The notes: generated by a model from the letters alone, not told the origin. Positions 39,393-54,329 are shown, counted from the first letter of the stretch. The stretch: 64,000 nucleotides of DNA from Armatimonadota bacterium (GCA_020850315.1 JADZEY010000089.1:1022-65021); one strand, 5' to 3'. Made by a program: numbers and translations.

Positions 39393-40913
39393 TTACTCAC
39401 GCACCAACACCATGCTTCCGTACAACCTGCCGTCGCCAGCCAACACAAGTGGCGGCTGCAAGCTGGCCCAAGATGAGGTTCCATCAACCGCGAATTTTTG
39501 GGCAACGATCTGGCTGCTGTACTCCCCCGGATGCTCCAGCGGAACGTCGCGGATGGCCACGATGATAAGCTGCCCCAACGCATCCACCGTTAGCGCGGCA
39601 TCGCGCTCGGGCGTGGGGGTGTTGAATGCGGCCACTGCATAATCCCCTTCCCCCCAGGCTTGCGTCCCATCGGCAGCAATCCGCTGCACGTAGATGTCGC
39701 GGTCGCGGGTGGTGGTGTCGGTGGTTTCCATCGAAAGGTAGAAGTGCCCAAGCCCATCGGCAAGCAACTGTTGATGCGCCACTTGGCCATGCTGCACCCC
39801 TGTCAGCACTGCCTTCTTCCCTTCGTTCCACAGCGGTTTGCCAAGCATATCCAGCCGTTGCATCCCAATAAATGTTTGCCCCCCAATCTGAAGTTTGAAC
39901 GCCACAGCAAGGCCAGCTGGTTCGGCCAAAACAACGGGATCTGTCTCGCGCGCTTTTGCATCGGAGCTCACCAGTGGCAACGATGCTTCATCCATCCATC
40001 GGCGCGAGCCGTCGGGGGAGATGCGTTGTGCAAGGATGTCAACATCGCCGGCTCGTTCCCCAGCGGTGTATTCGATTTCGTAGGCCACATATGCCCCGCC
40101 GGCTCCGTCGCTTACCACTGCGGCATTCCGCTCCAGATGGCGGCTTGTGGCAACGTGCACTGGGTTTGCCGAAGCACCCCACCCGGTTTTGCCGTAGCCA
40201 TCAATCCGCATTGCCAGCAGGTCGCTGGATGCCACGGAATCTTTGGTGATGACAGCGCTTTCGTACACCGCAATCACCCCGCCACGGCTATCGGCCACAA
40301 CTCCGGAAAGAAGTTCGCGCCGTTTCGTCTTGGCGATCCAGGAACCGGATCCCCAGGCTGGCTTCCCATCGGCTCCAATTTTTACGGCTGCAATATCAAC
40401 ATCCCCAAAACTGCTTGCCGAGTAGTGGACTTCGTACAGCACCATGATCGAGCCATCGTACAGTTTCACGGCTTGGGCATTCTGTTCGCTGAAATTGGAG
40501 CGGGCTATTGCGGTGATTTGATTTGTTGAATCCCCCCAAAGGTCGTTTCCTTCACGATCCAGGCGGCGCATCAGAATGTCGCGGTCGCCGGCGTGCGCGC
40601 TTGCGTTATGCTCCACCGTGTACATAAGAAAACAACCGCCATTGGCATCGGGGAGGGTAATGGGGGAAAATTCCTTGTAGCTTTGCCCGCAAATGGAGGC
40701 GGGGGTTGCTGCCGGGGTCTCCAGCCGGCCATCGGTGAAGAAACGGGCAGCGATAATATCCTTATCTCCCGTGCGCTCCCCGCTCAGAAATTGTGCTGGG
40801 AACAACGCTGCAATCCTGCTGATCTGCTGCCCCAAGAGTGTGGTGGTGGTTGCCAACAACATGGTGGCAATGGCAGCAATCAGTTGGGTCAACGTCGGTG
40901 TACTTGGGTTCAT
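39393..40913 (-). CDS. Hypothetical secreted repeat protein, probably a beta-propeller
   Basis: It has a signal peptide (MNPSTPTLTQLIAAIATMLLATTTTLLG). At least five repeats of about 55 aa contain D(R/V)DI...R(I/L)..DG...WG. I recognise no named family. Confidence 0.5.
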   Translation of the reverse strand: MNPSTPTLTQLIAAIATMLLATTTTLLGQQISRIAALFPAQFLSGERTGDKDIIAARFFTDGRLETPAATPASICGQSYKEFSPITLPDANGGCFLMYTVEHNASAHAGDRDILMRRLDREGNDLWGDSTNQITAIARSNFSEQNAQAVKLYDGSIMVLYEVHYSASSFGDVDIAAVKIGADGKPAWGSGSWIAKTKRRELLSGVVADSRGGVIAVYESAVITKDSVASSDLLAMRIDGYGKTGWGASANPVHVATSRHLERNAAVVSDGAGGAYVAYEIEYTAGERAGDVDILAQRISPDGSRRWMDEASLPLVSSDAKARETDPVVLAEPAGLAVAFKLQIGGQTFIGMQRLDMLGKPLWNEGKKAVLTGVQHGQVAHQQLLADGLGHFYLSMETTDTTTRDRDIYVQRIAADGTQAWGEGDYAVAAFNTPTPERDAALTVDALGQLIIVAIRDVPLEHPGEYSSQIVAQKFAVDGTSSWASLQPPLVLAGDGRLYGSMVLVRE

Positions 40914-40997
40914 AGCAATTCCTATCCTGTACCTTGTTTGGGGCAAGATACGTGGAAAACTTCCGAATAACCATCTTCACATATTCAAGAATCTACT

Positions 40998-45680: not shown

Positions 45681-47675
45681 ATGACCAAAGCCCTACGCTA
45701 TTACCTTGCCGCAGCCTTGCTTGTTGCTGCTGGCGTGTTGGTGGCAATCAACACAAAATCTTCGCCGAAACCGGCGGCGCGCACCTACACTGGTGTGCAA
45801 TCTTGCCTAACCGCCAACTGCCATGCCGGACAGTATGGCAACGGAGAAAGCTACAAAGGTGCCGCAGCGTTTATGGAAACGATGCACACCAAAATCCACC
45901 AGCGACCAAACCCACAGACCGTAATCATTGACCGCTGGTTCCGCGAAAAACGTGTGTTGAAAATCCACGACCAGGGAATCCCAACGCCTGGGCAGGATAC
46001 GCTGCTGATTGAGCTAAGCAAAGGGGAGCGTGAGGATGAATACTACATCCAGCTCCGCTTCTCGGGTGGGGGCGATTCCTTGCCAAAAATGAAGGTGGGC
46101 TACACCTACGGCGGCAACGGATGGCTGCAACGGTTTTTGGTGGAGATCAACGGAGCCTACTATGTTCCCCCGTTCCAGTATGTGCTTCCTGAATACCGTA
46201 ACCAGTCCGATACCGGTTATTGGGTTGGATTGGATATGCAAAAATGGTACGTGGCAAACGATCCAAATACTGGCAGCGCACGATTCCTCCGCTGGGAAAA
46301 GAATGAGTTCCTGAAACTCTCGTGGGATCACGAGTGTGCTGCCTGCCACGTAAACGGTTTTGGCTTGGTTGTGGATCCCAAACCAGGAACAACCGACACC
46401 GCAAATTATGCAACATGGGTTGGCGTTGCCGAAGGCGACTCCGCTCTGGCCGACCAGAACATTATGATCGGTTGCGAAAGCTGCCACGGCCCCGGCTCGG
46501 AACACGTTGCAAGCCCACGGAAGGATAACATCTTTGCCTTCTCGGTACTCCCCAAAACAAAGGAGGCAACCGACCGCAAATTGGATCTTTGCAACTACTG
46601 CCACACCCGTGGCCCCAGCAAGCCAGGCCGCGTCCATCGCTATCCGTTTGATGAAACCAACAATGAGCCGTTCATCCCAGGTGGCGAACGTCCGCTCAGC
46701 GATTTCTTTTTCGCACGCCCAACGGTCTGGGACGACGGAAAAACTTCCTACGCCCACCACCAGCATGGCGATGATTATGCGCGCTCAACGCAGTATAAAA
46801 GTCACCTGTTCATTGACGGCTGCTCCGATTGCCACTTGTCCCACTACAACAAGCCAGGGCTACCGTTCCAGTTGAAAGATGATTACTACTCATTGGAAGA
46901 TGGCGTTGGCTGCATGAGCTGCCACGGTATTCCAAAGGCGCAGGGAGGAAAGAGTGAGTTCCCAGCCGATAATTTGGGACGTGATACAGTGTTGGAAGGG
47001 AAGACCCTGAACGCACATACGTTCCACTCGCAAGGGGTAAGCCAGTGTGTGAACTGCCACTTCACGGCAACGGCAACCATCTCCTTCGACGGCAAGTTCA
47101 ACTTCACCGATCACAGCTTTAAAGTGGTCTCGCCAGAGGAGACTATTTGGTACTACCGCCGCGGAGCAACCATCGGGGTGATTAACTCCTGCGCTGCGGG
47201 CTGCCACCGCAACGGGCGCGGCGAACGGAACCGCAAGCCAGGCGACCCGCTGGCCCCAGACTTTGGAATCGTAGATCTGAACCCAGTCTTCTATAAGGAG
47301 AAAACGGATAGCCTGTTGGCTGATACGCTGTTCAAGCGTTGGAAGCAGTGGGGATGGTCAACACGGCATAATCAAACTGGAGTTGAGACATCCAACATCG
47401 CCGTCACCGGCATGGCACCAAACCCAATGGTATCCGGCAACACGCTGAACATCCAGTACAATGTGAAGTCCCGCTCGAACGTACGGGTGCAGATTGTGGA
47501 TATGCTTGGCAGGAACATCCGGTACGTTGCCAACGGCATGACCGAGCCAGGGAATCACTCAGTAGTGTGGGATGCCAACGATAACTTTGGCAAGCGGGTG
47601 GCAAGCGGAGCCTACATGGTTCGCATCACAACACCGGCTGGGACCACCAGCGAAAAAGTGATTGTGCTGCCGTAG
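45681..47675 (+). CDS. Secreted multihaem c-type cytochrome with a C-terminal Por/T9SS sorting domain
   Basis: It has a signal peptide and six canonical CXXCH motifs (CAACH, CESCH, CNYCH, CSDCH, CMSCH, CVNCH). There are also variant CX3CH (CAAGCH) and CX4CH (CLTANCH) motifs. The last ~85 aa (MAPNPMVSGNTLNIQYNVKSRSNVRVQIVDMLGRNI...SGAYMVRITTPAGTTSEKVIVLP) match the T9SS C-terminal-domain consensus. Confidence 0.75.
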   Translation: MTKALRYYLAAALLVAAGVLVAINTKSSPKPAARTYTGVQSCLTANCHAGQYGNGESYKGAAAFMETMHTKIHQRPNPQTVIIDRWFREKRVLKIHDQGIPTPGQDTLLIELSKGEREDEYYIQLRFSGGGDSLPKMKVGYTYGGNGWLQRFLVEINGAYYVPPFQYVLPEYRNQSDTGYWVGLDMQKWYVANDPNTGSARFLRWEKNEFLKLSWDHECAACHVNGFGLVVDPKPGTTDTANYATWVGVAEGDSALADQNIMIGCESCHGPGSEHVASPRKDNIFAFSVLPKTKEATDRKLDLCNYCHTRGPSKPGRVHRYPFDETNNEPFIPGGERPLSDFFFARPTVWDDGKTSYAHHQHGDDYARSTQYKSHLFIDGCSDCHLSHYNKPGLPFQLKDDYYSLEDGVGCMSCHGIPKAQGGKSEFPADNLGRDTVLEGKTLNAHTFHSQGVSQCVNCHFTATATISFDGKFNFTDHSFKVVSPEETIWYYRRGATIGVINSCAAGCHRNGRGERNRKPGDPLAPDFGIVDLNPVFYKEKTDSLLADTLFKRWKQWGWSTRHNQTGVETSNIAVTGMAPNPMVSGNTLNIQYNVKSRSNVRVQIVDMLGRNIRYVANGMTEPGNHSVVWDANDNFGKRVASGAYMVRITTPAGTTSEKVIVLP

Positions 47676-47713: not shown

Positions 47714-47763
47714 GGAGGCACGGATTCTCTGGGGGAGCAATCTCCCCGCGACTTCGTGCCTCC
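47714..47763 (+). terminator. Compound stem-loop 3' of the cytochrome gene
   Basis: The outer arms GGAGGCACG...CGTGCCTCC enclose an inner GGGGGAG/CTCCCCG hairpin. A GGGGGTTTTCCC tract lies 20 nt downstream. There is no clean U-tract. Confidence 0.35.
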
Positions 47764-47902
47764 CGTGTATCGGGGCTGCTCTTGGAGGGGGTTTTCCCAC
47801 AGTTTGAAAAACGCTGCGACAGCAATCCCTACCTTGAATTCCGTAGCTTGCTTCGGTAGAGCATCAATCTGGGGCTAACCATAATTCTGCGGAATCAACG
47901 CT

Positions 47903-48592
47903 GTGTCTTCCACGCTTGCCAAAGCATTCCAACAAATGGCTGCTGTTGCGGCAAAGGATATCCGAAGCGAGCTTCGTACACGATTCGCGCTGAACTCCCT
48001 TGCAATGGTTGCTGTGGTAACGGTGGTGGTGTTGGTGTATGCCGCCCGCGAGGAGGTGAAGGTCCCCGTGGGGATTGCTTCCGGGATGCTGTGGGTGAGT
48101 ATGTTTTTTACCGCTGTGACTGGGCTTGGCCGCACGTTTGTTAGCGAGGAAGAGCGTGGCACGGTGCTGCTGCTGCGGCTAACAACCTCGGCAATCCCTG
48201 TGTACTTCGGCAAGCTGCTGGTGAATATGCTGTTTGCTGTTGGGGTGAATGCCGTGGTGGGGGTGCTGTACTTGTTCTTCTCCACCAACGTGCAGTTGGG
48301 TTCGCCGTTCGCGCTGCTGGTGGTGCTGCTTCTGTGCAGCTTCGGGTTTGCCGCATCGCTCACAATCGCTTCGGCCATTATCGCCCGCTCCTCCTCCAAA
48401 AGTGCTCTGTTCCCGGTGCTCTGTTTCCCAATTCTGCTGCCGCTGATGGTGCTGGGGATTGACCTTCTTGGCCGTTCGTTTGCTGGCGCAGCGTTGGGCG
48501 TGATGCTTGAACCATTGCTGCTGCTGCTGCTGTACTCAGTGCTGGTGATCGTCGTCAGCTACATCTTGTTCGACTTCCTCTGGAAAGAATAA
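47903..48592 (+). CDS. ccmB: Haem exporter protein B (System I cytochrome c maturation)
   Basis: It has six predicted TM helices and the CcmB-family motif FVSEEERGTVLLLRL. It begins with GTG at 47903; an alternative ATG lies at 47936. No ccmA ATPase gene is adjacent. Confidence 0.72.
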   Translation: MSSTLAKAFQQMAAVAAKDIRSELRTRFALNSLAMVAVVTVVVLVYAAREEVKVPVGIASGMLWVSMFFTAVTGLGRTFVSEEERGTVLLLRLTTSAIPVYFGKLLVNMLFAVGVNAVVGVLYLFFSTNVQLGSPFALLVVLLLCSFGFAASLTIASAIIARSSSKSALFPVLCFPILLPLMVLGIDLLGRSFAGAALGVMLEPLLLLLLYSVLVIVVSYILFDFLWKE

Positions 48593-48595
48593 TCC

Positions 48596-49696
48596 ATGAA
48601 AGCACTTCTCATTTTCGGCGGGTTTGCCTTGGGGATGTTCCTCGGCTTCTATCCCGGCGGCGTTACCAAGCCGCGCCCCGTGTGGTGGCGCACCGTTGCA
48701 ATGGTTGCCCTTGTGGTGTTGGTTTTTGTTGGGTTCGGCGTGCCAACGGGGGGAACCTTCGGCTCGGCAAAAATGATCACCATGACCAAGGACACGCCGC
48801 CACTGCTTCCGGTGATGGGGAAGGTGGTGCAGGCGCCAACCAACGGCTTGGCCGTGCTCCAAGATTCCGATGGTGATTTAGATACGTTCCGGTTGGCCGG
48901 CACGGGAATGAACCCCTCTGACATCCAGCGTGGCGACCAAGTGATCCTTGATGCCCGCTTCATTCGCGCCGAAAAACTGTTCGAAGCCGAGCGGGTTGCT
49001 TCGGTGAACCCCATCGTCACCGCGCCGCTGATCCCCGGGCTTGAGGAACGCGCCCGCAACCTCTATTTCCATGTCCCCTCGGCTTGGGTGGCGCAAATTG
49101 CGTGGTTTGTGGCGTTCGGTTTTGCGATAGCCTACCTGCGCAAACGAAAAATTGAGCATGACATCATTGCAAGCTCAGCTGCCGCGTTGGGGGGGATTTT
49201 TTGCCTGTTAGCAACCATCACCGGATCGGTGTGGGCGCGTTTTAACTGGGGGACATTTTGGACGTGGGACGATCCCCGGCTTATCTCCATCACGATTGTC
49301 CTGATTGTTTTTGGGGCCTACTTTGCGCTCCGTTCTGCAATCGAGAACCAAGACCAGCGGGCAAGGATTTCCGCAGTCTATATGATTATCCTGGTGCTTC
49401 CGGTGACGTTCTTCATGTTCGTCTATCCCCGGATTGCTGGCGGATTGCACCCCGGTTCAAAAGGGGATGTGAACTCCGGACCGGTGCTGTCGGGCCAAGC
49501 CGATTCAATGAACATTGTGATGCAGGTCATCTACGGCTTAGCAATCTTTGCGTTTATTACTCTCTACTTCTGGATGCTGAACGTTGCTGCCCGAACACGG
49601 CTGTTGGGGATGCGCCGGGAACGCCGCGCCGCCGAAATGGATAACCGAGAGAAACAACCAACATCGGCAATGGGGCCGACGGTGGTTCGTCTGTGA
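48596..49696 (+). CDS. ccmC: Haem exporter protein C with a ~125-aa N-terminal extension or insertion
   Basis: The WWD tryptophan-rich motif (NWGTFWTWDDPRL) and the LYFHVPSAW block align with CcmC. The protein is 366 aa against ~245 aa for canonical CcmC. The extra region has two TM segments and a ~70-aa soluble segment. Confidence 0.78.
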   Translation: MKALLIFGGFALGMFLGFYPGGVTKPRPVWWRTVAMVALVVLVFVGFGVPTGGTFGSAKMITMTKDTPPLLPVMGKVVQAPTNGLAVLQDSDGDLDTFRLAGTGMNPSDIQRGDQVILDARFIRAEKLFEAERVASVNPIVTAPLIPGLEERARNLYFHVPSAWVAQIAWFVAFGFAIAYLRKRKIEHDIIASSAAALGGIFCLLATITGSVWARFNWGTFWTWDDPRLISITIVLIVFGAYFALRSAIENQDQRARISAVYMIILVLPVTFFMFVYPRIAGGLHPGSKGDVNSGPVLSGQADSMNIVMQVIYGLAIFAFITLYFWMLNVAARTRLLGMRRERRAAEMDNREKQPTSAMGPTVVRL

Positions 49697-49746
49697 GCCA
49701 CGGCTTGCTGAAGCGATCAACTTCATACACTGGCCAACCAAGAACC

Positions 49747-49881
49747 ATGCAATTCCTATCCGAACACTCTATCTACGTTGTTCTTATCATCGCGCTATTG
49801 ATCCTGAGCGGGTTGCTGATCTACCTAAACCGGATTGATGCTCGGCTGCGAAAACTTGAACAAGAGGAACCACAACCATGA
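49747..49881 (+). CDS. CcmD-like small single-TM protein
   Basis: It is 44 aa (MQFLSEHSIYVVLIIALLILSGLLIYLNRIDARLRKLEQEEPQP). Its size and position between ccmC and ccmE are typical of CcmD. Its stop overlaps the ccmE start. Confidence 0.45.
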   Translation: MQFLSEHSIYVVLIIALLILSGLLIYLNRIDARLRKLEQEEPQP

Positions 49882-50261
49882 AACCAAAGTATATCATCGG
49901 GGCCGTTATCGCCCTTGCGGTGCTGGTCACAGCGTTTATCGTTGTTGAAAGCCGTGGCGTGGAGTACATGAACTTCCCACGCGCCGCCGAATCAGGAAGC
50001 AAAGTGCAGGTGGCCGGCGTTTGGGTGAAAGAGAAAGGACAGGAGTACAACGCCACCAACAACCTGTTCACGTTCACCATGCAGGATCGCGACGGCAACA
50101 CCATGCCAGTAAAGTTTGAAGGTGCCAAGCCAAATAACTTCGAAATTGCCACCGAAGTGGTCTGCACCGGAAGGGTGGAGAATGGAGAGTTTGTGGCAAC
50201 GAACATCCTAACAAAATGCCCCAGCAAGTACGAAGCAACCTCAAAAGACTTGCAGCTGTAG
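49878..50261 (+). CDS. ccmE: Cytochrome c maturation haem chaperone CcmE, Cys variant (CXXXY instead of HXXXY)
   Basis: It has a TM anchor and an OB-fold that aligns with E. coli CcmE. VQVAGVWV corresponds to VRLGGMVM, and VKFEGAKPNNF to VSYEGILPDLF. The haem-binding position reads ILTKCPSKYE where the canonical sequence is LAKHDENY. Confidence 0.68.
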   Translation: MKPKYIIGAVIALAVLVTAFIVVESRGVEYMNFPRAAESGSKVQVAGVWVKEKGQEYNATNNLFTFTMQDRDGNTMPVKFEGAKPNNFEIATEVVCTGRVENGEFVATNILTKCPSKYEATSKDLQL

Positions 50262-50316
50262 CCACGCATCAGCCACGCTGCACTCTCCCGCTTTCCCAGA
50301 ACTAACCCTTTCCTCA

Positions 50317-50673
50317 ATGCAACGCAGAATCCTTTTCATCTCCTTCTTTCTGTTGCTCGCAGCCGGCGTTGTGATCTACGGAGTGATGAACGTTGATGTG
50401 CCGCAAATGACCTTTGCCGAAGCGGTGAAGGTCAACGATGAATCCAAAAAAGTGATTCTGGTGGGGAAAGGAATCAACCGCCCCGCCACCGAGGATGGCG
50501 CAGTGGTCTTTTACGTGACCGATATGGACGGCACCGAAGTGAAAGTGAGCTACGATGGCGAAGCCTTCGACCACGAACGGCTGAACCACGCCTTGCAAAA
50601 GGGAGAGGTGGTGCACGTTGCCGGCCACGCCCACTCGGATCATTTCCACGGCAAAGAACTCTTCTTTAAGTGA
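50317..50673 (+). CDS. Second CcmE-like OB-fold protein with a His-rich C-terminus
   Basis: It has a TM anchor. VKVSYDGEAFDHERL...KGEVVHVAGHAHSDHFHGKELFFK aligns with the CcmE core (VDVSYEGILPDLF...GQGVVVQGEL). The C-terminus is His-rich and lacks the conserved Tyr. Confidence 0.5.
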   Translation: MQRRILFISFFLLLAAGVVIYGVMNVDVPQMTFAEAVKVNDESKKVILVGKGINRPATEDGAVVFYVTDMDGTEVKVSYDGEAFDHERLNHALQKGEVVHVAGHAHSDHFHGKELFFK

Positions 50674-50697
50674 CCCCCCACACAGCAGCTTACACCA

Positions 50698-53121
50698 ATG
50701 AATGATACAGCAGTTTTTAACGGAACACTTGGCACGATTGCCATCTGCTTTGCGCTTGCCACCGCCGCAATCGCAATGGTTGCCTATGGGCTGATGTGGA
50801 AAAACGGAGAGGAGCGATTTGGGAAGATTGGCCGCGTTGGCTTCCATGCTTCGGTGCTCAGCTTCATGTTCGCATCGGCCACGCTGATGTTCTTGATTTT
50901 CACCCACCAGTTCCAGTACACCTACGTCTGGCAGCATTCCTCCACCTTCCTTTCTCGCCCGTTGCTGATGGCCTCCTTCTATGCCGGGCAGGAGGGGAGC
51001 TTCATGCTCTGGACGTTGCTGACCTGCATCGTTGCAGTGTTTGTGATGGGATATGCCCAGCGGGTGAACTACGAAGCCCCAGTGATGACCATCTACACAC
51101 TGGTGCTGGTCTGTTTGCTGATGATTCTGGTGGTGCAATCTCCCTTCGAGACGCTGCAAGCATCGTTCCCGGGCGAGGTGCCGGCAGGCTACATTCCCCC
51201 CACCGGAAAAGGGATGAACCCGCAGCTGGAAAATCTGTGGATCACCATCCATCCCCCAATTCTTTTCATGGGCTTTGCCGCAATGTCCGTTCCGTTTGTG
51301 TTTGCCATTGCTGGGCTGTTCCGCAAGGATTACCAGCGTTGGATCACCGTCTCGCTCCCCTGGACGCTGTTTGCCTCCATGGTGCTGGGATTCGGAATTA
51401 TGCTTGGCGGTTGGTGGGCCTACGAGACGCTTGGTTGGGGCGGTTTTTGGGCGTGGGACCCGGTGGAAAATTCATCACTGATTCCGTGGCTGGTCTGTGT
51501 GGCACTGGTCCATACCATGCTGGTGCAGAAACGAACCGGAACCATGAACGGCCCTAATGGCAAGCCAATGGCAGGGGGGCTTGTTCGCACCAATTTTGTG
51601 CTGGCAATTTTTGCCTATGCACTTATTCTTTACTCCACGTTCCTTACCCGCTCCGGCGTTCTTGGCGATACCTCAGTCCACAGTTTTGTTGCGCCGGGAA
51701 TGTTCGTGTACGCAGTGCTGTTGGGGATTATTTTTCTATTTCTTGGGATTGGCATTGTTGCCCTCTCAATTCGTTGGCGGCAGCTAACGAACATCGCTGG
51801 CGAGATGAAACTGATGTCGCGCGAGAACGGTTTGGCACTGGGTTCGGCGGTGTTGGTGGGGTGTTCCATCGTTACTTTAATCGGGACAAGTTGGCCCATT
51901 ATTCGCCCCATTTTTGGTTTAGCAAAAAAACCGTTCGAAACCGGCGATTTTAATATGCTGATGCTCCCATTCGGTTTTGTGATTGTGTTCTTGAATGCCT
52001 TAACCATGGGGCTGAAGTGGAAAAACACCTCCAAAGAATCGTTTGTAAAAGCGTTATCATTATCAACAATTATTGCCGCTGTTGGAACGTTCGGGCTGAT
52101 ACTGTTAGGAATCCATGACCCAATCTACATTGCGCTCGGCTTTGGGGCAATGCTGGCATTAACCATCAACATTGAAATGGGGTGGAAAATCCTTCGCGGA
52201 AATAAAAGCTTTGTTGGCGCGTATGTTTCCCATGCTGGCGTTGCGTTGATGATGCTTGGCATTGTCTTCACCGCCCGCTACTCCGTCACCCAGCACGTCC
52301 GTTTGCCGGAAGGGGAGACCAAAGAAGCGTTCGGCTACAAGATGACCTACAAGGGGCAAGAACAGATTGAGTTAGACAAAACCGATCGCGAAAAATACGC
52401 CCATAAAATTGAGATGGTGAAGGATGGAAGCAGCTACGAAGTACAACCAATTATTTTCTGGAGCGATTTTAATAAACGGCAATCTGCATTTCTTGAGCCG
52501 GGGATATTGTACTATCCAACAAAAGACATCTACGTCTCCCCAAAAGCCATTGAAGACGATGGCGGAAATCCAACAATCGCCATGCACAAAGGGGACAAAA
52601 TTCCCCTCCCGTTTGATTCCAGCATCGCCCTCCGTTTTGTGAAATTTGAAATGGCCAACGCAGCCCAAGATGGGAAGCAATCGGCTGTTGTTGAAGTAAC
52701 CACAAAGGATAGCACATTTTCCCTGATCGCTTCACGCGTTTTGGAAGGCGGTCGCTATCTGCCGGTATTGATCCCCTCCACCGACATCTCCATCGGGTTC
52801 GGCGATCTGCGTGCCGATCGGGAAAACTTGGCAAACTCCGAAGCTGTTTTTGTCTTCAGTTCGCCATCGCATCCGCCGCCACCATCCAAGCGGGTGATTA
52901 CGGTTGATGTTTCCGTAAAACCGTTTATTTCGTTCGTTTGGGCGGGAGTGATTATCATGGTGGGGGGATTTTTCTTCTCAATTATCCGCCGCTGGAAAGA
53001 TGTGTTCCGGGGGATAAGCCCTTCAGTGCCTTCACCCCTTCAGCAGCCGCAAACCTTGTTGGCCAGTGGTGAACAATTAAGCAGCGCACGCCCGAAAGAA
53101 ATTAATGTGGGAGAAGTTTAG
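50698..53121 (+). CDS. ccmF: Cytochrome c-type biogenesis protein CcmF (haem lyase subunit)
   Basis: It has the WWD motif (WGGFWAWDPVENSSLIPWL), many TM helices and the conserved CcmF N-terminus (MNDTAVFNGTLG...). The protein is 807 aa. Confidence 0.85.
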   Translation: MNDTAVFNGTLGTIAICFALATAAIAMVAYGLMWKNGEERFGKIGRVGFHASVLSFMFASATLMFLIFTHQFQYTYVWQHSSTFLSRPLLMASFYAGQEGSFMLWTLLTCIVAVFVMGYAQRVNYEAPVMTIYTLVLVCLLMILVVQSPFETLQASFPGEVPAGYIPPTGKGMNPQLENLWITIHPPILFMGFAAMSVPFVFAIAGLFRKDYQRWITVSLPWTLFASMVLGFGIMLGGWWAYETLGWGGFWAWDPVENSSLIPWLVCVALVHTMLVQKRTGTMNGPNGKPMAGGLVRTNFVLAIFAYALILYSTFLTRSGVLGDTSVHSFVAPGMFVYAVLLGIIFLFLGIGIVALSIRWRQLTNIAGEMKLMSRENGLALGSAVLVGCSIVTLIGTSWPIIRPIFGLAKKPFETGDFNMLMLPFGFVIVFLNALTMGLKWKNTSKESFVKALSLSTIIAAVGTFGLILLGIHDPIYIALGFGAMLALTINIEMGWKILRGNKSFVGAYVSHAGVALMMLGIVFTARYSVTQHVRLPEGETKEAFGYKMTYKGQEQIELDKTDREKYAHKIEMVKDGSSYEVQPIIFWSDFNKRQSAFLEPGILYYPTKDIYVSPKAIEDDGGNPTIAMHKGDKIPLPFDSSIALRFVKFEMANAAQDGKQSAVVEVTTKDSTFSLIASRVLEGGRYLPVLIPSTDISIGFGDLRADRENLANSEAVFVFSSPSHPPPPSKRVITVDVSVKPFISFVWAGVIIMVGGFFFSIIRRWKDVFRGISPSVPSPLQQPQTLLASGEQLSSARPKEINVGEV

Positions 53122-53123
53122 AG

Positions 53124-53660
53124 ATGCCGAAAACAAAGCAACCAGCGATTCCTGAAGCTGTGCAATCGAAAGAATTGCACGAAGAGGATCGCATCCTTTC
53201 CAACGAGCAAAAACAGCAGGCGATTGCAACATTCACCAAATTCCTGACCCAGGAACATTACCGCTCAACCGAGGAGCGATTTAAGGTGTTGGAGATGGTG
53301 CTGCACCGCGTTGGGCACGGGCATTTTAATGCCGATGAGTTGTACGCAAATATGGTGATGAGTAAAATTCGCATCAGCCGCGCAACCGTCTATTCAACGC
53401 TGGAGTTGCTGGAAAAAGCTGGGATTATTATCAAGCATAATTTCAGAACTGATAGAAGCTATTATGAGGTCGGATTTGATGAACCACATCACGATCACTT
53501 GATCTGTGTGAAATGCGGGCATATCTCGGAATTTGTGAACCCGCAACTTCTTAGCATTCGCAAGCAAGTTGCCGACATGGCAGGGTTGAAGGTTGTGGAT
53601 CACTCCTTCCAGATATTTGCCGAGTGTCCCGAGCCAGGAAAATGCCCGCATAATCAATAA
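53124..53660 (+). CDS. fur: Fur-family metal or haem-responsive transcriptional regulator
   Basis: It has the Fur winged-helix region (RATVYSTLELLEKAGII), the HHDHLIC metal-site motif and CxxC...C in the C-terminal domain. It starts 2 bp after the ccmF stop. Confidence 0.78.
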   Translation: MPKTKQPAIPEAVQSKELHEEDRILSNEQKQQAIATFTKFLTQEHYRSTEERFKVLEMVLHRVGHGHFNADELYANMVMSKIRISRATVYSTLELLEKAGIIIKHNFRTDRSYYEVGFDEPHHDHLICVKCGHISEFVNPQLLSIRKQVADMAGLKVVDHSFQIFAECPEPGKCPHNQ

Positions 53661-53687
53661 ATCACCCATTATCCTGACCACCGACCT

Positions 53688-54329
53688 ATGTTTAGTAAAC
53701 ACGTTTGGTACGACCGCCGCCACCAAGCTGAAGTATTTATTTCGGATGATGGGCAGATCAGTGGTGCAATTATTGCCTACAAAGGGGCCGTGTTTGTGGT
53801 GAATCCACGCCCAGAAATCATGACCGCGCTCTATCAAGAAGGAAAAATTAAACGGATACTTTCATTGAAAGGGGTGGTGCTTACCGATACCACAATGGAA
53901 TATACCCGTGGTGTCTGCTCGCTTGTTAGCTACTCGCGTGCGTTGCGGCGGAAATCACCCTTTGCCATTATCACCCGCGATAATACCGCAATCACGTCGG
54001 GATTTCTTGCCTCCTGCTGTACACAATTAGTTCCCGATGGTAGTTTCCAGGTGCAATTAACGGCATTACCGCAGCGGGAATCGTTTGTGCTGGGAGAAGG
54101 GTTAATCCGATATGAGCCGCAAGAAACTACGGAGTCCAGCGGCGGCAGCCCCTGCCTTGTGGTGGAAACCCGCGAACGCCGCATCCATTTCTACGATGAA
54201 ACCCACGTGGGGTCTTTTAATTCTAGCGAATTACCCTTGCTGCAACAGCCCCACGTTGTTATTCGCGCTGCCAACATCATGAAATCATTCCAGCCAATTG
54301 AGCAGCGGGTGTTGCAGGTGGCACGGTGA
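53688..54329 (+). CDS. Hypothetical protein, possibly a degenerate metallo-beta-lactamase-like fold
   Basis: It is 213 aa. LKGVVLTDTTMEYTRGV resembles an MBL motif-2 region with the His residues replaced. I am not confident of the family assignment. Confidence 0.4.
   Translation: MFSKHVWYDRRHQAEVFISDDGQISGAIIAYKGAVFVVNPRPEIMTALYQEGKIKRILSLKGVVLTDTTMEYTRGVCSLVSYSRALRRKSPFAIITRDNTAITSGFLASCCTQLVPDGSFQVQLTALPQRESFVLGEGLIRYEPQETTESSGGSPCLVVETRERRIHFYDETHVGSFNSSELPLLQQPHVVIRAANIMKSFQPIEQRVLQVAR

Follow-up and report, generated by a model that had tools for sequence, protein, structure and literature searches.

We analyzed a 64,000-nucleotide (nt) stretch of DNA, one strand, of Armatimonadota bacterium (GCA_020850315.1, JADZEY010000089.1:1022-65021; hereafter the window) and focused on a gene cluster for cytochrome c maturation (Ccm). 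The locus is real and ordinary for its clade: We are fairly confident that it represents the standard cytochrome c maturation operon of the Kapabacteria/Ignavibacteria lineage, that is, a System I* operon that carries two lineage-specific extra β-barrels. One of these barrels is inserted into CcmC, the other is a protein of its own, CcmE2, which is encoded directly behind the haem chaperone CcmE1. What appears to be new is this CcmE-like barrel within CcmC together with the co-occurring, histidine-rich CcmE2 that lacks the haem-binding tail.

Eight co-directional open reading frames (ORFs) occupy positions 47903-54329 of the + strand in the order ccmB, ccmC, ccmD, ccmE1, ccmE2, ccmF, fur and an unknown gene encoding 213 amino acids (aa), orf213, with gaps of 3, -4, -4, 55, 24, 2 and 27 nt at the successive junctions. 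From ccmB to fur, positions and strand are those given in a preliminary description of this DNA, and Pfam and NCBIfam profile searches established the identities, thereby also supporting its view of a System I cluster that departs from the canonical order ccmABCDEFGH.

The CcmC of the window (48596-49696, +; 366 aa) is a long form, whose Pfam match (PF01578, 69.6 bits) is confined to residues 151-276. It possesses the haem-handling core of System I, in which a tryptophan-rich (WWD) loop, here WGTFWTWDDPR (residues 218-228), lies between two periplasmic histidines, here His159 in YFHVP and His285 in GLHPG; both histidines and the tryptophan-rich residues are invariant among 91 aligned sequences. 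For a full-length AlphaFold2 model (predicted local distance difference test (pLDDT) 91.4, predicted template modelling score 0.88), the best matches in the PDB are E. coli CcmC 7f02_C and 8ce1_C, with a target template modelling score (TM-score) of 0.62-0.64. In E. coli CcmC and in the short CcmCs of the same phylum (222-227 aa), transmembrane helix 1 runs directly into the IPGLE..YFHVP segment, whereas the long form carries an insert of ~100-125 aa between this helix and the IPGLEERARNLYFHVP segment, in agreement with the ~125-aa insertion noted previously. The insert is predicted to form an OB-fold, CcmE-like domain in periplasmic loop 1 (48749-49045, +; residues 52-150), of which the β-barrel proper, five-stranded and closed, comprises residues 71-137 (48806-49006, +). 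Each of the 91 aligned long CcmCs contains this barrel, to which the prediction assigns a pLDDT >90. Profile-profile comparison with hhalign connects the insert family to the CcmE1 family with a probability of 94.6% (E=7e-8), or 95.8% (E=7e-9) with the 91-sequence alignment, and to the CcmE2 family with a probability of 90-95%. The scores between insert and CcmE amount to 45-53, the maximum of the controls to 18.3, these controls being reversed and 80 column-shuffled profiles. On these comparisons, the insertion is confidently assigned as an OB barrel homologous to CcmE. The 91 aligned sequences show no conserved His, Cys or Tyr in the barrel, which is therefore not itself a covalent haem carrier.

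The second barrel, CcmE2 (50317-50673, +; 118 aa), is a paralogue that has the CcmE fold and a membrane anchor and lacks the haem-binding tail. The protein matches no Pfam family, PF03100 included, and only weakly the CcmE equivalog NF009727 (E=2.7e-4), and a comparison with the PDB, by single sequence or by profile, yielded nothing significant. Orthologues share 20-40% identity, and a single-sequence search retrieved 18 matches among 1.84 billion representatives. As single-sequence searches are nearly blind in this case, it is profile-profile comparison that makes the relationship to CcmE visible: hhalign links the CcmE2 family (26 locus-derived orthologues) to the CcmE1 family with a probability of 98.4% (E=4e-15), and with 97.1% for the barrel alone, which substantiates the earlier claim of two tandem CcmE paralogues. 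The N-terminus of CcmE2 is hydrophobic and follows RR. At the other end, the alignment with CcmE1 terminates at the TK directly before CPSKY, CcmE2 stops 5-8 residues beyond the last strand, and a [C/H]xxxY motif is found in 0/36 non-redundant members. CcmE2 thus has the anchored homologous OB barrel of the CcmE family and no [H/C]xxxY tail, and for lack of this tail we refer to it as a CcmE-like paralogue and not as a CcmE. For the same reason, the different haem-binding chemistry attributed to it in the preliminary description is a hypothesis at most: An alternative [H/C]xxxY motif is absent, as is any tail. The family is marked by the motif G-H-x-[H/C]...F-H-[A/G], each of whose three triad positions is kept in 33/36 members and which reads GHAHSDHFHG in the last hairpin of the window protein (residues 103-112, nt 50623-50652). 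CcmE1 has an Arg, a Glu/Asp and a variable residue at these positions, and the orthologue of the related loci L003 and L008 has lost the triad. The His/His(Cys)/His cluster is located near the end of the barrel, where the tail begins in CcmE1, and may plausibly constitute a non-covalent haem or metal site.

CcmE1 itself (49878-50261, +; PF03100, 61.7 bits) is the membrane-anchored haem chaperone, an OB barrel that ends in LTKCPSKYE and thereby carries the C-terminal motif Cys114-x3-Tyr118 (CPSKY, residues 114-118, nt 50217-50231). Its best match in the PDB is the Desulfovibrio CcmE 2kct. LTKCPSKY is invariant across 19 aligned relatives, and CxxxY is present in the CcmE of 62/62 loci with a long CcmC (long type) and 47/47 loci with a short CcmC (short type), the HxxxY form being absent from both sets. 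A cysteine instead of the haem-binding histidine of CcmE is what defines System I*, which is known from Desulfovibrio and archaea (Allen 2006; Goddard 2010; PMC3601427, PMC9084895). CPSKY is the majority motif of these Cys-CcmEs (PMC3601427), and in an archaeal system the cysteine is required (PMC9084895). CcmG is absent or undetected in System I* and CcmH is absent in some cases, and a Desulfovibrio operon devoid of CcmH and CcmG yields cytochromes c in E. coli (PMC3601427). The locus belongs to this published system, which together with gene dispersal accounts for most of the ways in which it deviates from the E. coli paradigm. Consequently, the missing CcmG and CcmH and the Cys-CcmE, previously presented as peculiarities of the locus, are defining System I* traits (PMC3601427, PMC9084895).

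To place the operon in its lineage, we compared gene neighbourhoods across genomes. Hundreds of relatives of the long CcmC, 345-400 aa in length, occur in metagenome-assembled genomes (MAGs) of Chlorobi/Chlorobiota, Kapabacteria, Ignavibacteria and Bacteroidota; the nearest are 96% and 89% identical, and the closest public relatives are Chlorobiota MAGs. Three relatives with 46-89% identity repeat the layout of a type IX secretion system (T9SS) cytochrome, ccmB, ccmC, ccmD, ccmE, (ccmE2), ccmF, fur and the unknown gene. When GTDB was scanned with one genome for each species, 343 genomes contained a relative, and the best 80 of them all have the long form. We annotated these 80 long-CcmC loci with profile hidden Markov models (HMMs), counting as denominators the contigs long enough to show each gene. 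A ccmE stands beside the long ccmC in 62/74 loci, all 62 with CxxxY, ccmE2 in 54/71 and ccmF in 40/64; ccmB adjoins it in 16/76, the upstream cytochrome is present in 10/66, fur in 12/63, and ccmA is near in 1/80. The core of long ccmC, ccmD, ccmE1, ccmE2 and ccmF hence recurs in most of the 80 species-level genomes, and the complete layout from cytochrome and ccmB to fur is the norm in the closest 12-16 species. The preliminary description had considered the synteny atypical unless it proved commonplace in the clade, and the neighbourhood comparison shows that it is commonplace. For comparison, we assembled 82 loci from a metagenome scan (80 loci, L091-L170) plus L087 and L089, 81 of them with a CcmC of <290 aa. 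These short-type loci are compact ccmA-B-C-D-E-F clusters: ccmA adjoins ccmC in 44/51 and ccmB in 42/51, ccmE with CxxxY is found in 47/47, and CcmE2 in 0/53. The two types differ clearly in the presence of CcmE2 (Fisher test, p=2e-20) and in ccmA adjacency (p=3e-26). CcmE2 occurs only with long CcmC and never at the short-CcmC loci sampled, and the missing ccmA neighbour that had been noted as an oddity is the rule for long-CcmC clusters. The loci L084, L004, L006, L011 and L081 look like intermediates, and in the likely order of events insertion of the barrel came first, CcmE2 second and the dispersal of ccmA and ccmB last; both argue for a long type that is derived and has replaced the short type, and against a second pathway.

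The question why System I* can dispense with CcmH, CcmG and the histidine that binds haem is raised explicitly in a 2011 review, according to which bioinformatics had found no compensatory feature in other Ccm proteins (PMC3601427). The CcmC barrel and CcmE2 are candidates for such features. The long type could then be an undescribed System I* sub-variant in which the CcmC barrel, a co-evolving CcmE2 and CcmE1 act as a three-barrel haem relay, supplying what the review had sought and possibly replacing CcmH in part at CcmF or loosening the dependence on CcmAB. We entertain this extension only tentatively. Since the short-type relatives possess neither of the two extras and have no adjoining ccmG or ccmH either, System I* cannot in general require the extras.

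A further-reaching explanation starts from the missing genes. As stated in the preliminary description, ccmA does not adjoin ccmB. Our searches of the 64 kb revealed no ABC ATPase and no ccmA, ccmG or ccmH: Walker A motifs in open frames of >100 codons number four only, in an AAA_16 protein, RuvB, FtsH and FtsK; a profile HMM for CcmA, based on 80 sequences, has no match at E <= 10 in any frame; and no plausible gene contains a thioredoxin WCxxC or a CcmH-type LRCxxC motif. The CcmA-CcmB module is thus represented in the window by CcmB (PF03379), and CcmA is without a match. Inspection of the neighbouring genes in 84 related loci likewise revealed no ccmG or ccmH. On this reading, the long type would work independently of the CcmA ATPase, the barrel and CcmE2 replacing the ATP-driven release of holo-CcmE, and ccmA would be truly absent in many of these genomes. 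The drop of ccmA adjacency from 44/51 to 1/80, the detachment of ccmB in 60/76 long-type loci, the orphan ccmB without ccmA in L085 and L086, and the finding, reported in PMC11868835, that CcmB is the haem translocase are in line with this idea. Yet L084 has a full ccmA-ccmB-ccmC(long)-ccmD-ccmE-ccmF operon, with the insert in CcmC and without CcmE2, whose ccmA is a partial first gene with ABC signature and Walker B; hence, absence from the locus in the window is not absence from the genome. Moreover, the window retains ccmB, whose known partner is CcmA, and scattering of ccm genes is common in the lineage: Apart from the two orphan ccmB genes, L088 has a free-standing ccmA-ccmB pair, which is the arrangement expected if ccmCDEF merely moved away, and L087 and L089 have ccmA-B-C(short)-(D)-E(-F). 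We therefore consider independence of CcmA unlikely. By analogy with these relatives, ccmA most likely resides elsewhere in the genome, which would mean dispersal rather than loss. In L087, L088 and L089, ccmA and ccmB are preceded by genes for a YfiO/BamD-like protein, a 4HBT thioesterase and a ~570-aa protein, with an additional FG-GAP protein gene in L087 and L088 only; this context could guide the search for a displaced ccmA in long-type genomes.

Another interpretation, favoured by the preliminary description, is a specialized pathway for the cytochrome next door. Directly upstream, as the motif scan confirmed, an octahaem c-type cytochrome with variant haem motifs is encoded (45681-47675, +; 664 aa; TIGR04183/PF18962 Por_Secre_tail plus multihaem domains). 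Its eight motifs comprise six CXXCH, one CX4CH (residue 42) and one CX3CH (residue 504). In an alignment of 13 sequences, the window included, CX3CH is found at site 8 in 13/13 and CX4CH at site 1 in 11/13 and at site 6 in 10/13, where the window has CXXCH. Because of its T9SS sorting tail, the protein is presumably displayed on the cell surface. The 227-nt gap between cytochrome and ccmB contains a GC-rich hairpin (47714-47763, +; GGAGGCACG...CGTGCCTCC), which is kept in L001 and L005, has no T-run and possibly acts in termination or processing. Behind it lies a promoter-like block of ~60 nt (47800-47860, +) composed of TTTG, the palindrome GCTGCGACAGC (47813-47823) and TAccTTGA, which is nearly invariant in the window, L005 and L001, with diverging flanks. 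TTTG and TAccTTGA resemble a Bacteroidota-type promoter, so that the block could have promoter and operator roles, and the palindrome may be an operator for the Fur of the operon. A role of GCTGCGACAGC as a repeated operator was discarded, as no convincing second copy exists elsewhere in the window. Scanning the operon for sigma-70 promoters and terminators gave no enrichment over shuffles, the models being unsuited to Bacteroidota-type promoters, and an Rfam scan of the whole window gave zero matches.

In such a specialized pathway, the adjoining cytochrome with its CX3CH and CX4CH sites would be served by a machinery truly lacking CcmA, CcmG and CcmH, which fits the position of the cytochrome directly upstream, the conservation of its variant motifs, the retention of the adjacency in the closest subclade and the 64 kb without ccmA, ccmG and ccmH. 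It does not fit the distribution, as the cytochrome adjoins 10/66 long-CcmC loci only and the same ccm core is nevertheless found in the others; furthermore, hairpin and promoter-like block part the two units. CcmF is no NrfE either: It scores 261 bits with TIGR03145, far below the cutoff of 927.3, and no NrfF- or NrfG-like genes lie near it. The generic E. coli Ccm system matures CX3CH and CX4CH sites as well, and the complete A-B-C(OB)-D-E-F operon of L084 looks like the general system of the cell. A second ccm set was not seen, although a genome-wide search was not made. A specialized pathway is accordingly quite improbable in our view, and the cytochrome is context and a likely substrate, not a member of the ccm operon. 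Finally, that CcmE2 and/or the CcmC barrel are decaying, functionless relics of a ccmE duplication and fusion is very improbable: Both do lack the haem-attachment residue, CcmE2 diverges fast and the triad is gone in the L003/L008 orthologue, but 54/71 species-level genomes, though deeply diverged, have retained an intact CcmE2 ORF with its anchor, the triad is kept where CcmE1 has other residues, the barrel is confidently predicted and occurs in every aligned long CcmC, and the strict co-occurrence of CcmE2 with long CcmC argues against decay.

For the standard System I* operon with two additional barrels, we propose the following mechanism. Judging by homology, the WWD pocket of CcmC would hold the haem between His159 and His285; the haem would next be attached to Cys114 of membrane-anchored CcmE1 and then be released via CcmB, CcmD and a CcmA ATPase encoded elsewhere. 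CcmF would then receive the haem and ligate it to the CXXCH, CX3CH and CX4CH sites of apocytochromes, among which is the T9SS octahaem cytochrome encoded upstream. Two CcmE-type barrels without attachment residue, the loop-1 insert of CcmC and CcmE2, would form a layer specific to the lineage; they probably work together because they co-occur. The structure of E. coli CcmABCD/E shows CcmB bound by the helix of CcmE and the CcmE barrel above the CcmB/C interface, and an AlphaFold model from the same work places the CcmE barrel over the WxWD loop (PMC10457321). Being tethered just before His159, the CcmC barrel would occupy this neighbourhood of the E. coli CcmE barrel, and it might therein serve as docking partner or lid for the CcmE barrel beside the haem exit site. 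With its His/His(Cys)/His cluster as a transient ligand of haem, or of a metal, CcmE2 could act as relay or adaptor on the way from CcmC/CcmE1 to CcmF. In the closest subclade, fur and orf213 would be additions transcribed together with the ccm genes, presumably linking expression to iron or haem status. A scaffold or ligand role of the two extra barrels and a regulation by Fur are what we infer from these arrangements. Several observations weigh against this picture: CcmE2 is not obligatory, since 17/71 long-CcmC loci, for example the five intermediate-like ones, do without it. Structure comparison by itself ranks CcmE 49th among OB folds for the CcmC insert, so that the specific tie to CcmE derives from the profile-profile scores. 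A database search with the CcmA of L087 returned as best 120 matches other Ignavibacteria and Bacteroidota and none from near-complete relatives. Lastly, beyond the one unreplicated palindrome at 47813-47823 no Fur box was identified.

The remaining genes of the operon conform to their families. CcmB (47903-48592, +; 229 aa), the membrane subunit of the CcmAB ATP-binding cassette module, scores 42 bits with PF03379 (cutoff 24.9) and has 1393 homologues, many of which are annotated as heme exporter protein B. The ccmD gene encodes 44 aa from ATG 49747 (49747-49881, +) and matches CcmD_alt (PF20077) with 25.6 bits at a cutoff of 23.5; its longest ORF (49693-49881) opens at GTG 49693, but ATG 49747 is the likelier start as the 44-aa product fits the 41-48 aa of its relatives. 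CcmF (50698-53121, +; 807 aa; PF01578 and PF16327) provides the haem lyase core and aligns with residues 11-613 to Thermus CcmF 6ZMQ (E=2e-63). It contains the WWD motif WGGFWAWDPVEN (residues 247-258) and the conserved histidines 185, 272, 328 and 512 in TIHPP, LVHTM, SVHSF and VSHAG, respectively, as is characteristic of System I; we take these four to have the P-His and TM-His roles, judging from homology. Residues 614-807, which extend beyond the Thermus alignment, make CcmF ~140 aa longer than Thermus CcmF and comprise a larger last periplasmic β-rich domain, a final transmembrane helix and a ~50-aa cytoplasmic tail.

The fur gene (53124-53660, +; 178 aa; PF01475, 104.5 bits) starts 2 nt past the ccmF stop and encodes a Fur-domain protein with the motifs HHDH and CVKC and a conserved C-terminal Cx5C. 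Its subtype (Fur, Zur, PerR or Irr) gave no NCBIfam match above cutoff, the best being NF006999 Fur with 88 bits at a cutoff of 146. At all 12/63 loci in which fur follows ccmF, the locus belongs to the closest subclade. The suggested translational coupling of fur to ccmF holds in part: The genes are co-oriented and 2 nt apart in the window and in L001, but the coupling is not conserved, as relatives have intervening genes or gaps of 15-45 nt (L004 and L003). Co-transcription of fur with the ccm genes is likely from this arrangement. We rejected the CP dipeptides of Fur as haem-regulatory motifs, since the first is not conserved and the two cysteines look like the second half of a structural Zn site. 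In sister loci (L009 14687-15568, L011 4424-5392, L016 14816-15694, also L010 and L018), a gene for a secreted protein of ~290-320 aa is located between ccmF and fur; it was dismissed as a substitute for CcmH, CcmG or CcmI, as it lacks Cys motifs and does not occur in the window. The last gene of the block, orf213 (53688-54329, +; 213 aa), begins 27 nt after fur and directly follows it in 15 related loci; searches against Pfam, NCBIfam and the PDB gave no match.

Some observations concern the wider surroundings. At L023-L025, L027, L032, L034, L035, L037, L046, L047, L052, L075 and L078, a solitary long ccmC without ccmD or ccmE is found, followed in several cases by a gene for a conserved protein of ~245-260 aa with eight transmembrane helices; the ccm genes of those genomes are fully dispersed. 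In Ignavibacteria-type loci, a secreted protein of ~150-175 aa with a conserved C-x3-GCW is encoded immediately upstream of ccmC (L044, 9480-10004) or ~3 kb upstream of it (L051, 6564-7022). The rest of the window consists of ordinary chromosomal housekeeping genes; on the - strand, positions 39393-40946 encode a 517-aa protein with ~50-aa repeats of the type GD[RV]DI...G...WG, which has no Pfam match and is syntenic in L001 and L003.

In the literature searched, we found nothing relevant on a second or tail-less CcmE, on an OB domain in CcmC or on the ccm genes that Ignavibacteria and Kapabacteria carry; Pfam and NCBIfam likewise contain no description of the CcmC barrel and CcmE2. In the NCBI records examined, long CcmCs carry the label 'CcsA', and CcmE2 has neither a name nor a Pfam domain, which is a point for annotation. 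Ignavibacteria and Kapabacteria, in which long-type clusters are common, have many surface multihaem cytochromes. As the haem hand-over from CcmC via CcmE to CcmF is still disputed, the naturally CcmC-tethered barrel and CcmE2 offer a ready probe of CcmC-CcmE docking and of a non-covalent haem relay.

Compared with the E. coli CcmABCDEFGH system (7F02-7F04, 8CE8; Thermus 6ZMQ), the locus shares the core fold of CcmC (target TM-score 0.64) with its two histidines and tryptophan-rich loop, the WWD motif and four histidines of CcmF, and the OB barrel of CcmE with its membrane anchor. It differs from E. coli in that CxxxY replaces HxxxY, CcmG and CcmH are missing at the locus, CcmC carries the barrel, CcmE2 is present, and the genes are dispersed. 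With regard to the CcmE family (PF03100), CcmE2 and the insert share the pattern of N-terminal anchor plus OB barrel (probability 98% for CcmE2 and ~95% for the insert), whereas neither has the C-terminal [H/C]xxxY tail and the insert is without a conserved ligand residue. The similarity to System I* comprises the CPSKY motif of the Cys-CcmE, an operon without ccmH and ccmG, and the preserved cores of CcmB, CcmC, CcmD and CcmF; unlike System I*, the window has an OB barrel in CcmC, a tail-less CcmE2, fur and the unknown gene appended, and no ccmA in the operon. The order of the Desulfovibrio operon, by contrast, is ccmEFABCD. CcmC variants are not listed in the System I* table of the review (PMC3601427). 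Of the same phylum-level lineage are the short-type ccmABCDEF clusters of Ignavibacteria and Bacteroidota (L087, L089, L091-L170), which have the CcmD_alt, the LTKCPSKYE CcmE and the CcmF in common with the window and whose CcmB in L087 (P0226) is ~45% identical to that of the window. The short type differs by a CcmC of ~225 aa without barrel, by the lack of CcmE2 (0/53) and by adjoining ccmA and ccmB (44/51 and 42/51). Being devoid of both extras, these short-type relatives constitute a built-in control for the role of the two barrels.

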